DNA of 64,000 nt from Candidatus Poribacteria bacterium (GCA_963663765.2 CAXXUA010000003.1:160001-224000), one strand, 5' to 3'; counted from the stretch's first letter, positions 4,651-5,205 are shown. Made by a program: numbers and translations. The notes: generated by a model not told the origin, from the letters alone.

Positions 4651-5205
4651 TTAATCTCCTCCGTAAAACTTATGATAAGCAAGAACTGCTTCAAAAAAAT
4701 CAACGAAGTTTTTGAATTTATGAGTACTATCAACTTCATTAATGGCTTGGGTTAGTGCATCTTTTAGGTCACTAACTTCAGATTTCCGGGCTGCAGCATA
4801 AGCCAATTTCGGTTTCAGCATAATCAACTCGTTGCGGTTAAACTCTTCACTCATCTGGATTTTCTTTACTGCACCGTATACTTTTCGGATTTGAGCGGTT
4901 TTAAGGTTCCTTGCAAGTTTACGTCCTAAACTTTCAGCTGCAGCGACAAGTGGTTCACCACCATTCTCAATAATCTCTGAAATATCAACTTTTTGTTGAG
5001 CAACCACTTCTACTTCAACATTATTTGCAGTAGGTCCTTTTTCTGACTGTTTGATTACAAATGAAGTCACTTGCTGCCCTTCTTCAAGTTCATCAAACTG
5101 AGCATTCTTTAGCGCACTACGTGTGAAGTGAACATCTTTACCCCCATCATCAGGCTGTATAAATCCAAAGCCGGTACGTAGACTTTTAATTTTTCCTGTA
5201 GGCAT
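4651..5205 (-). CDS. csm2: Cold-shock domain-Csm2 (small subunit) fusion protein
   Basis: Start ATG 5205 after AGGAGA; residues 1-66 CSD (TGKIK...[16 protein letters not shown]...LEEGQQV...KGPTANNV); remainder Csm2 ([36 protein letters not shown]). Confidence 0.92.

Follow-up and report, generated by a model that had tools for sequence, protein, structure and literature searches.

Small subunits of type III CRISPR effector complexes (Cas11, Csm2 and Cmr5) are usually treated as passive spacers lining the target-RNA channel. In solved Csm complexes, several copies of Csm2 stack as a minor filament opposite the Csm3 backbone and face the bound target RNA, and type III immunity is coupled to transcription. 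Longer forms of Csm2 also exist, such as the 187-196-aa chains 6mur_B, 6o7h_B and 6iqw_B and the proteins P0191, P0214, P0223, P0262 and P0265 of our set, in which the N-terminus is extended by 55-135 residues; this end of the protein therefore tolerates extensions of such lengths. Cold-shock domains (CSDs), represented by CspA, CspB and CspE (PF00313), bind single-stranded DNA as well as RNA.

Here, we describe a Csm2 gene with an N-terminal CSD in a window of 64,000 nucleotides from a Candidatus Poribacteria genome. Compared with canonical Csm2 (PF03750; PDB 5an6 and chains of 6ifk, 6xn3 and 9g9f), the same helical bundle is predicted in the C-terminal 110 residues and the gene holds the same place between cas10 and csm3, but the protein differs by a folded 65-residue N-terminal CSD, a part that no solved Csm2 chain covers. 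The extensions of the long Csm2 forms are helical or of low complexity, unlike this CSD. The domain shares its fold and the RNP1 motif GFGFI with CspA, CspB and CspE. Unlike them, it is not free-standing, its RNP2 reads VHFTR in place of VFVHF, the strand-1 Trp is replaced by Ser or Thr, and the beta1-beta2 turn is, judged by eye, two residues shorter. The retron Se72 effector NF038236 and the PADLOC model CSD_V match the CSD part weakly (3.4e-9 and 2.7e-9, below the NCBIfam cut-off), which shows that CSDs recur in defence contexts; the retron proteins are stand-alone effectors, whereas here the CSD is carried by a subunit of a CRISPR effector complex.

The csm operon and its genomic setting

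The window corresponds to G000:C3:160001-224000 of a 6.35-Mb genome that is 97.8% complete. The operon is arranged as cas10-csm2-csm3-csm4-csm5-CARF/RelE, all on one strand (Table 1), and the five type III-A equivalog models for Cas10/Csm1, Csm2, Csm3, Csm4 and Csm5 were all matched above their NCBIfam cut-offs. The Csm neighbourhood implied by an earlier reading of this DNA, made from the sequence alone (hereafter, the sequence-only reading), was recovered, with Cas10/Csm1, Csm3, Csm4, Csm5 and a CARF protein all identified. In Cas10/Csm1, the HD domain is matched by PF01966 with E=9.5e-11, and the translation contains LLHDIGKF and YAGGDDLF, which we take to be the HD and GGDD motifs. Translation of csm5 probably starts at position 2779, with an ATG that overlaps the stop codon of csm4; tblastn matches of csm5 in many relatives (e.g. 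L002, L004 and L008) begin at residues 20-22.

Table 1. Features of the csm operon, with positions counted from the first letter of the window.
Feature	Position	Strand	Description
CARF-RelE effector, Cami1 type (381 aa)	454..1599	-	PF09651 E=4e-30; PADLOC CARF7--CARF_RelE E=1.1e-130 over 2-375
csm5 (404-aa ORF)	1628..2842	-	TIGR01899 E=2.6e-40 from residue 27
csm4 (346 aa)	2776..3816	-	TIGR01903 E=7.6e-76; Csm4_C
csm3 (271 aa)	3824..4639	-	TIGR02582 E=3.4e-70
CSD-Csm2 fusion gene	4651..5205	-	one 184-aa ORF plus stop, ATG at the 5205 end
Csm2 (Cas11) helical core	4654..4983	-	residues 75-184
linker	4984..5010	-	residues 66-74; sequence and length variable
cold-shock domain (CSD)	5014..5199	-	residues 3-64; RNP1 TGFGFI 11-16; altered RNP2 VHFTR 25-29
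Shine-Dalgarno AAGGAG	5212..5217	-	6 nt upstream of the CSD ATG, read directly
cas10/csm1 (772 aa)	5257..7575	-	TIGR02578 E=1.2e-176; PF01966, PF18211, PF22335: HD, domain B, palm2

Among 80 related loci, csm2 lies between cas10 and csm3 in 67, and the same order is kept by every detected gene in the other 13, which are short contigs or cut loci. The fusion gene is the sole Csm2 match in the 6.35-Mb genome, and since the csm operon is otherwise complete, this argues that the fused protein is the subunit used. No CRISPR array was found in the window; Cas6 and large arrays are encoded on other contigs and do not adjoin the csm operon, so that crRNA would come in trans. The genome contains three Cas10 loci (C3:165.6k, C6:200k and C4:1017k) and one Cas6 (C6:402.6k), together with at least eight long CRISPR arrays of three repeat types on contigs C4 and C6, some with about 100 repeats or more; a CRISPR repeat of these arrays ends in ATTGAAAC. 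The genome-wide array finder is crude and picks many non-CRISPR repeats, and only the eight long arrays that were inspected are used here.

Domain architecture of the CSD-Csm2 protein

Two Pfam domains were matched in the 184-aa translation: the CSD (PF00313) at residues 3-64, with E=3.1e-15 and 56.2 bits against a cut-off of 27, and Csm2_III-A (PF03750) at residues 84-183, with E=9.7e-30 and 104.1 bits against a cut-off of 24.8. The NCBIfam Csm2 model TIGR01870 was also matched (E=1.5e-18, 67.5 bits, cut-off 30.6). The CspA and CspE models of NCBIfam match the CSD part at about 1e-14 to 1e-15 and stay under their whole-protein cut-offs (55.6 vs 130); that full-length Csp equivalog models are not reached is expected of a divergent domain. 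Through phmmer, the CSD was matched to CspA (1mjc, 5e-11) with no gaps across the RNP motifs, and the core to Csm2 (5an6, 2.5e-13).

An AlphaFold2 model of the fusion protein, built on 102 family members, reached a mean pLDDT of 91 and a pTM of 0.73, with a linker pLDDT of about 81-82. It comprises five CSD strands (4-10, 13-18, 25-28, 45-54 and 57-65), a coil at 66-74 and seven helices within 75-180. In Foldseek searches against the PDB, the front part was matched to CspE and CspA (TM on target 0.81-0.86, identity 43-48%) and the rear part to the Csm2 chains 6xn3_C, 6ifk_C and 9g9f_B (TM on target 0.61-0.68), which come from the Csm complexes of L. lactis, S. thermophilus and E. italicus; no PDB chain spanning both parts was returned. 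A complex prediction of the CSD (1-66) with the Csm2 core (75-184) in trans, run without controls, scored 0.00 and is not counted for or against an interaction. The gene product is thus predicted to be the Csm2 small subunit of a type III-A complex with an N-terminal CSD. Translation, Pfam, AlphaFold2 and Foldseek agree in every particular with the sequence-only reading, which had described one frame with a strong ribosome-binding site, a CSD with RNP1 GFGFI, a short linker and a complete Csm2; the motifs cited there all occur in the translation.

Distribution of the fusion

In a search of 5.8 billion proteins, both Pfam domains were present in 102 of the best 120 clusters at 90% identity, with identities of 53-90% and lengths of 161-216 aa. 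The fused clusters are drawn from NCBI, JGI, ENA and Logan, and some lie on contigs 5-8 Mb long. Of the 80 kept loci from the species-level genome collection, 12 encode the fusion (11 full length and 1 cut by a contig end), several of them in single-contig assemblies; 11 are titled Poribacteria, and the twelfth, L007, is titled 'uncultured bacterium'. A related Csm2 was found in 48 of 176 Poribacteria species genomes, fused in 18 and unfused in 30. All 18 fused genomes belong to one family: 12 fall in the genus of the window, and two further genera account for 5 and 1. Among these 18 genes, one is split between the ends of two contigs and another is decayed. When 1.84 billion representatives at 50% identity were scanned with HMMER, only two full-length fused representatives were returned, plus fragments, and none of the eight other long Csm2 proteins scanned carries a CSD or another Pfam domain above cut-off, their extensions being helical or of low complexity. 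Taken together, these two results show the fusion to be one tight family.

All sampled words of window positions 4300-5600 were present in five sequencing runs of two studies, and contigs of four runs span 4797-5600, including the CSD-Csm2 junction, with 0 differences; one run may be the source sample. The spacing between the AAGGAG motif and the CSD ATG is identical in 12 of 12 fused genes, a comparison from which rows L024 and L026 were left out, and no conserved in-frame ATG, GTG or Shine-Dalgarno sequence was found in the linker of these 12 genes. A search for the fusion across genomes, which the sequence-only reading had proposed, places it in numerous relatives and independent assemblies, and the observation goes far beyond what chance would give. 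Two of the objections raised in that reading find no support: an assembly artefact is opposed by the fused relatives and the bridged junction, and translation of Csm2 alone from an internal start by the composition of the linker.

Conservation of the cold-shock domain

The ungapped alignment with CspA places KGFGFI opposite TGFGFI at RNP1 and VFVHF opposite VHFTR at RNP2. Positions of the CSD were mapped to the Csp binding face through the HMMER alignment with CspA, and the residues contacting nucleic acid were taken, as we assume them to be, from CspB-oligonucleotide structures. G14, I16 and F27 are invariant in 102 of 102 family members, and position 26 is His or Tyr in all 102. Position 13 is Phe or Tyr in 97 and position 15 in 101, while F37 is kept in 101 and K7 in 100 of the 102. 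Across the family, the Csp binding face thus appears to have largely kept its aromatic and basic positions. In RNP2, one aromatic residue is changed to His/Tyr, and the His and Phe positions (28 and 29) vary among the 102 members. The Trp of Csp strand 1 (beta-1), aligned by eye, is absent, with Thr in 94 of 102 members. With this Trp lost and RNP2 variable, the affinity may be weaker than that of CspA. The net charge of the CSD, counted from the translation, is roughly -1 and so about neutral, against the strongly basic tails of unfused relatives. The domain is best described as a conserved but divergent CSD whose binding face is apparently retained in part.

The 12 fused genes gave 66 possible pairs for the estimation of dN/dS, and dS was usable in 50, 54 and 51 pairs for the three regions once saturated or undefined values were left out. 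Median dN/dS values were 0.175 (CSD), 0.51 (linker) and 0.082 (Csm2 core), with dS near 1; the mean identity of the linker within the fused family is 0.48. The low ratio of the CSD, its invariant fold residues and the kept Shine-Dalgarno sequence together show that this domain has been under purifying selection over the long term.

Other CSD genes of the host were also surveyed. Only one further CSD is encoded in the genome (G000:C13:386565-387515; L082 1471-2421, +). This domain (E=1e-20) opens a 316-aa protein that has a long extension and, at its end, a weak Hfq-related match (PF21979, E=0.008, below cut-off). CSD matches in open frames of about 310-550 aa were found in 24 of the 24 other searched genomes of the genus; free Csp proteins of about 70 aa were not found in the genus and are present in other families. 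The idea that a host CSD gene was the donor of the domain has as its sole basis the shared MPTG[KR]IK start, the identity being 46-49% and so no higher than the 46-48% to E. coli CspA.

N-terminal cassettes and their exchange

In unfused relatives, a basic tail of 20-45 residues rich in Arg, Asn, Gln and Gly stands right before the core start 'VIE.GGE.LV'. Such tails were seen in Poribacteria, Acidobacteriota, Tectimicrobiota, Armatimonadota and others, and the Shine-Dalgarno sequence of these relatives is found at the equivalent place. The CSD occupies the exact position of this basic tail, a replacement of one low-complexity segment by a folded domain that the sequence-only reading had missed. 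The unfused Poribacteria Csm2 proteins (P0113 and L013-L016) share the operon, the position of the Shine-Dalgarno sequence and cores that are up to 95.5% identical to those of fused proteins, but carry the tail where the fusion has the CSD and linker. The closest case is that of fused P0050 and unfused P0113, identical in 95.5% of 111 core columns; fused cores among themselves show identities down to 49%, and so differ by up to 51%.

In a tree of the Csm2 core (176 rows, 109 columns, poorly resolved), 113 of 113 fused rows fall inside one clade of 148 rows (SH-aLRT 95), which interleaves 35 unfused rows, three of them misplaced long-branch Bacillota sequences. Parsimony counts 13 changes between the fused and unfused states on this tree, and the starred branches alone force at least 3. 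An AU test on 72 fused and 40 unfused rows rejected a single fused clade (lnL difference 116.9, p-AU 0.001), on a short alignment and for a grouping named after the first tree had been seen. The set for this test was assembled without 14 long-branch, outgroup or truncated rows (L039, L042, L045-L047, L049, L052, L053, L055, L056, L058, P0081, P0101 and P0102), and also without L011, loci beyond L058 and any row that matched a retained row of the same state at 93% identity or more. Considering the near-identical cores of P0050 and P0113 together with the rejection by the AU test, the CSD and the basic tail behave as interchangeable N-terminal cassettes and not as markers of separate lineages, and we infer that they were moved by recombination. 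The distinct type III-A variant proposed in the sequence-only reading is consequently better viewed as a cassette polymorphism inside one Poribacteria family, in which near-identical cores carry either the CSD or the tail.

Two variants with a reduced or disrupted gene were also encountered. P0101 (139 aa) still begins with the nine residues MPTGKIKTF and retains the last CSD strand, but the core of the CSD is gone; it represents an internal CSD deletion in an otherwise fused-type gene and is sister to fused P0054 (SH-aLRT 96%). In L084 397-1611 (G125:C132, -), the csm operon is decayed: a deletion has taken out the last part of csm2, the whole of csm3 and the beginning of csm4, so that residues 1-149 of CSD-Csm2 run in frame into the C-terminal half of Csm4. 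The existence of these variants indicates that the CSD is dispensable.

At positions 4790-4826, the assembly contigs break in all four runs, and the stretch is covered by unitigs of 32-37 nt at 10-30x the flanking depth. It encodes an invariant part of Csm2 and is evidently common, word for word, to several co-occurring strains. Such a shared stretch is a plausible substrate for the recombination proposed above.

The CARF-RelE effector

The PADLOC model CARF7--CARF_RelE matches the window effector over its full length (Table 1). Its C-terminal 128-138 residues gave no Pfam match at E<=10 and no meaningful sequence match in the PDB. A survey of type III systems, PMC11229360, defines CARF-RelE proteins as the Cami1 type and describes cA4-activated, ribosome-dependent mRNA cleavage for them. 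By its PADLOC match, the window effector belongs to this type, with a CARF domain and a C-terminal RelE-type domain. Among the 12 fused loci that reach past csm5, a close CARF-RelE homologue (at least 55% identity, full length) follows csm5 in 3 (the window, L003 and L005), a distant CARF protein of 24-25% identity is present in 3, and the window-effector query found nothing in 6. Unfused Poribacteria loci have such a close homologue behind csm5 in 3 of 23 cases (L016, L021 and L028). Of the pairing proposed in the sequence-only reading, the neighbouring effector of Cami1 type holds, and a specific association of this effector with the fusion is not supported (3/12 fused vs 3/23 unfused Poribacteria loci).

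Proposed role of the cold-shock domain and alternative explanations

A single polypeptide would be translated from the CSD start codon, with the CSD tethered to Csm2 by the 9-residue linker. As several Csm2 copies are stacked in each complex, the Csm complex would display several CSDs on short tethers along its target-facing minor filament. Both the CSD and the basic tail may be auxiliary binders of single-stranded nucleic acid without sequence specificity, the tail doing a related job by charge. Either cassette could raise the affinity of the complex for transcripts and help to hold the target or its flanks, or to open them, both ahead of crRNA pairing and in its course. This would tune RNA capture as well as how long Cas10 stays activated (cOA synthesis and the HD nuclease). 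Incorporation of the fused protein into the complex, binding of nucleic acid by the CSD and an effect on immunity are inferred. The reading that we favour, at somewhat better than an even chance, is that the CSD serves as a sequence-unspecific single-strand binder that aids transcript capture and holds or melts target RNA, thereby affecting how fast and for how long Cas10 is switched on. Counting against it are the lost strand-1 Trp, the variable RNP2 and the near-neutral charge of the CSD, as well as the 30 of 48 Csm2-bearing Poribacteria genomes without a CSD and the loss and decay variants P0101 and G125.

A related possibility, to which we give a minor share of belief, is that the CSD binds single-stranded DNA and not RNA. 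It would then anchor the complex at the transcription bubble by way of the non-template strand, and feed this strand to the Cas10 HD nuclease or position it there. The dual binding capacity of CSDs, the Pfam name 'Cold-shock DNA-binding domain', the HD domain kept in Cas10 (PF01966) and the coupling of type III immunity to transcription are all consistent with such a role. However, the sequence offers nothing that separates a preference for DNA from one for RNA, and unfused relatives with basic tails share the HD-bearing Cas10 architecture (tblastn matches from residue 1), so that the fusion does not track the HD domain.

A function among proteins, which appears unlikely to a similar degree, would make the CSD an assembly module that stabilises a loose Csm2 filament, docks a host factor or offers a variable surface against anti-CRISPRs, with no role in nucleic-acid binding. 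The pTM of 0.73 and the linker pLDDT of about 81-82 give a hint that the CSD sits in a defined place against the core; the missing conserved Trp and the variability of RNP2 fit as well, and rapid swapping of cassettes among near-identical cores is the pattern expected of an arms-race surface. Yet the best-kept residues of the domain are those of the canonical binding face and the fold, and the tail found in its place is basic and of low complexity, as nucleic-acid binders typically are and docking domains are not.

We consider it improbable that the fusion is neutral or nearly so, a recombination-driven accretion tolerated on an exposed N-terminus and drifting in and out of the family. Although its patchy distribution (18 fused vs 30 unfused among the 48 Csm2-bearing genomes) and the internal deletion and decay variants would suit such drift, the dN/dS of 0.175 at dS of about 1, the fold residues that stay invariant over 102 clusters down to 53% identity and the conserved Shine-Dalgarno sequence speak for selection. 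That the fusion is an artefact of misassembly or in truth not one protein, with two neighbouring genes or a separate Csm2 started internally, is scarcely credible: one NCBI record, P0081, names a 120-aa Csm2 beginning in the linker region, against a single uninterrupted frame, an architecture shared by 12 of 80 loci and 18 genomes, junction-bridging contigs of four runs and linkers of 12 genes free of any conserved ATG, GTG or Shine-Dalgarno sequence.

The favoured role of the CSD as a single-strand binder can be extended to a more speculative model, which is possible but which we hold only tentatively and think will rather fail than stand. The Csm2 N-terminus would be a swappable 'RNA-handling cassette', with the CSD and an RG/RNQ-rich disordered tail as alternative recombining alleles that confer a multivalent RNA-chaperone or annealer activity. 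This activity would set the sensitivity and duration of the response to structured or rare transcripts, and the polymorphism would be kept by selection, through phage counter-defence or differing target structure, in the dense and phage-rich habitat of the sponge.

Relation to described systems and significance

No published description of a CSD-Csm2 or CSD-Cas11 fusion was found in searches of 8.1 million PMC papers and 0.36 million preprints, whose supplements lay outside reach. A term search of the main text of PMC11229360 gave no occurrence of Csm2, Cas11 or 'cold'. The only source name seen for the fused proteins is 'CRISPR-associated protein Csm2', and in the ESM Atlas a cluster of 68 members bears the automatic name 'Cold-shock DNA-binding/Csm2 Type III-A domain-containing protein'. 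As far as was found, the architecture is thus visible in databases yet undescribed in the literature.

What is new here is the use of the CSD and the basic tail as interchangeable cassettes on near-identical Csm2 cores, a clean natural example of cassette exchange within a CRISPR effector subunit. The fusion is confined to one bacterial family of Candidatus Poribacteria, a sponge symbiont. If the proposed role is true, target capture in type III systems would be tunable through accessory modules on the small subunit. The cassette polymorphism makes the function of small-subunit appendages experimentally tractable, and a possible use lies in RNA detection with type III systems, in which low sensitivity towards structured RNA sets the limit.

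Other sequences in the window

Directly upstream of cas10, positions 7821-9785 (-) encode a 654-aa polytopic membrane protein with DUF6785 and DUF6784 (E=3e-166). Five paralogous small Cys/His-rich proteins of 106-263 aa, several with an N-terminal hydrophobic segment, are encoded at 10397-13887 (-), and the four scanned gave no Pfam match. One of these proteins contains GYDDSTC-like units, which are encoded by a 21-nt tandem repeat at 11669-11814.

Two candidate mini CRISPR arrays, at 10302-10398 and 13303-13380, were dismissed. Each has two copies, and at the second site the repeat is a palindrome with a GTCCCTACGGGAC core that is found throughout the genome. This 26-nt palindromic element (ACATATCGTCCCTACGGGACTAAAGA) forms short spaced clusters at dozens of sites in the genome; it has a REP-like look and is no CRISPR repeat. 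Further along the window, at 38185-42443, three pairs of 27-nt repeats occur about every 2 kb, with units encoding FSP.G-like motifs, an arrangement that suggests tandem paralogous genes with beta-propeller-type repeats.
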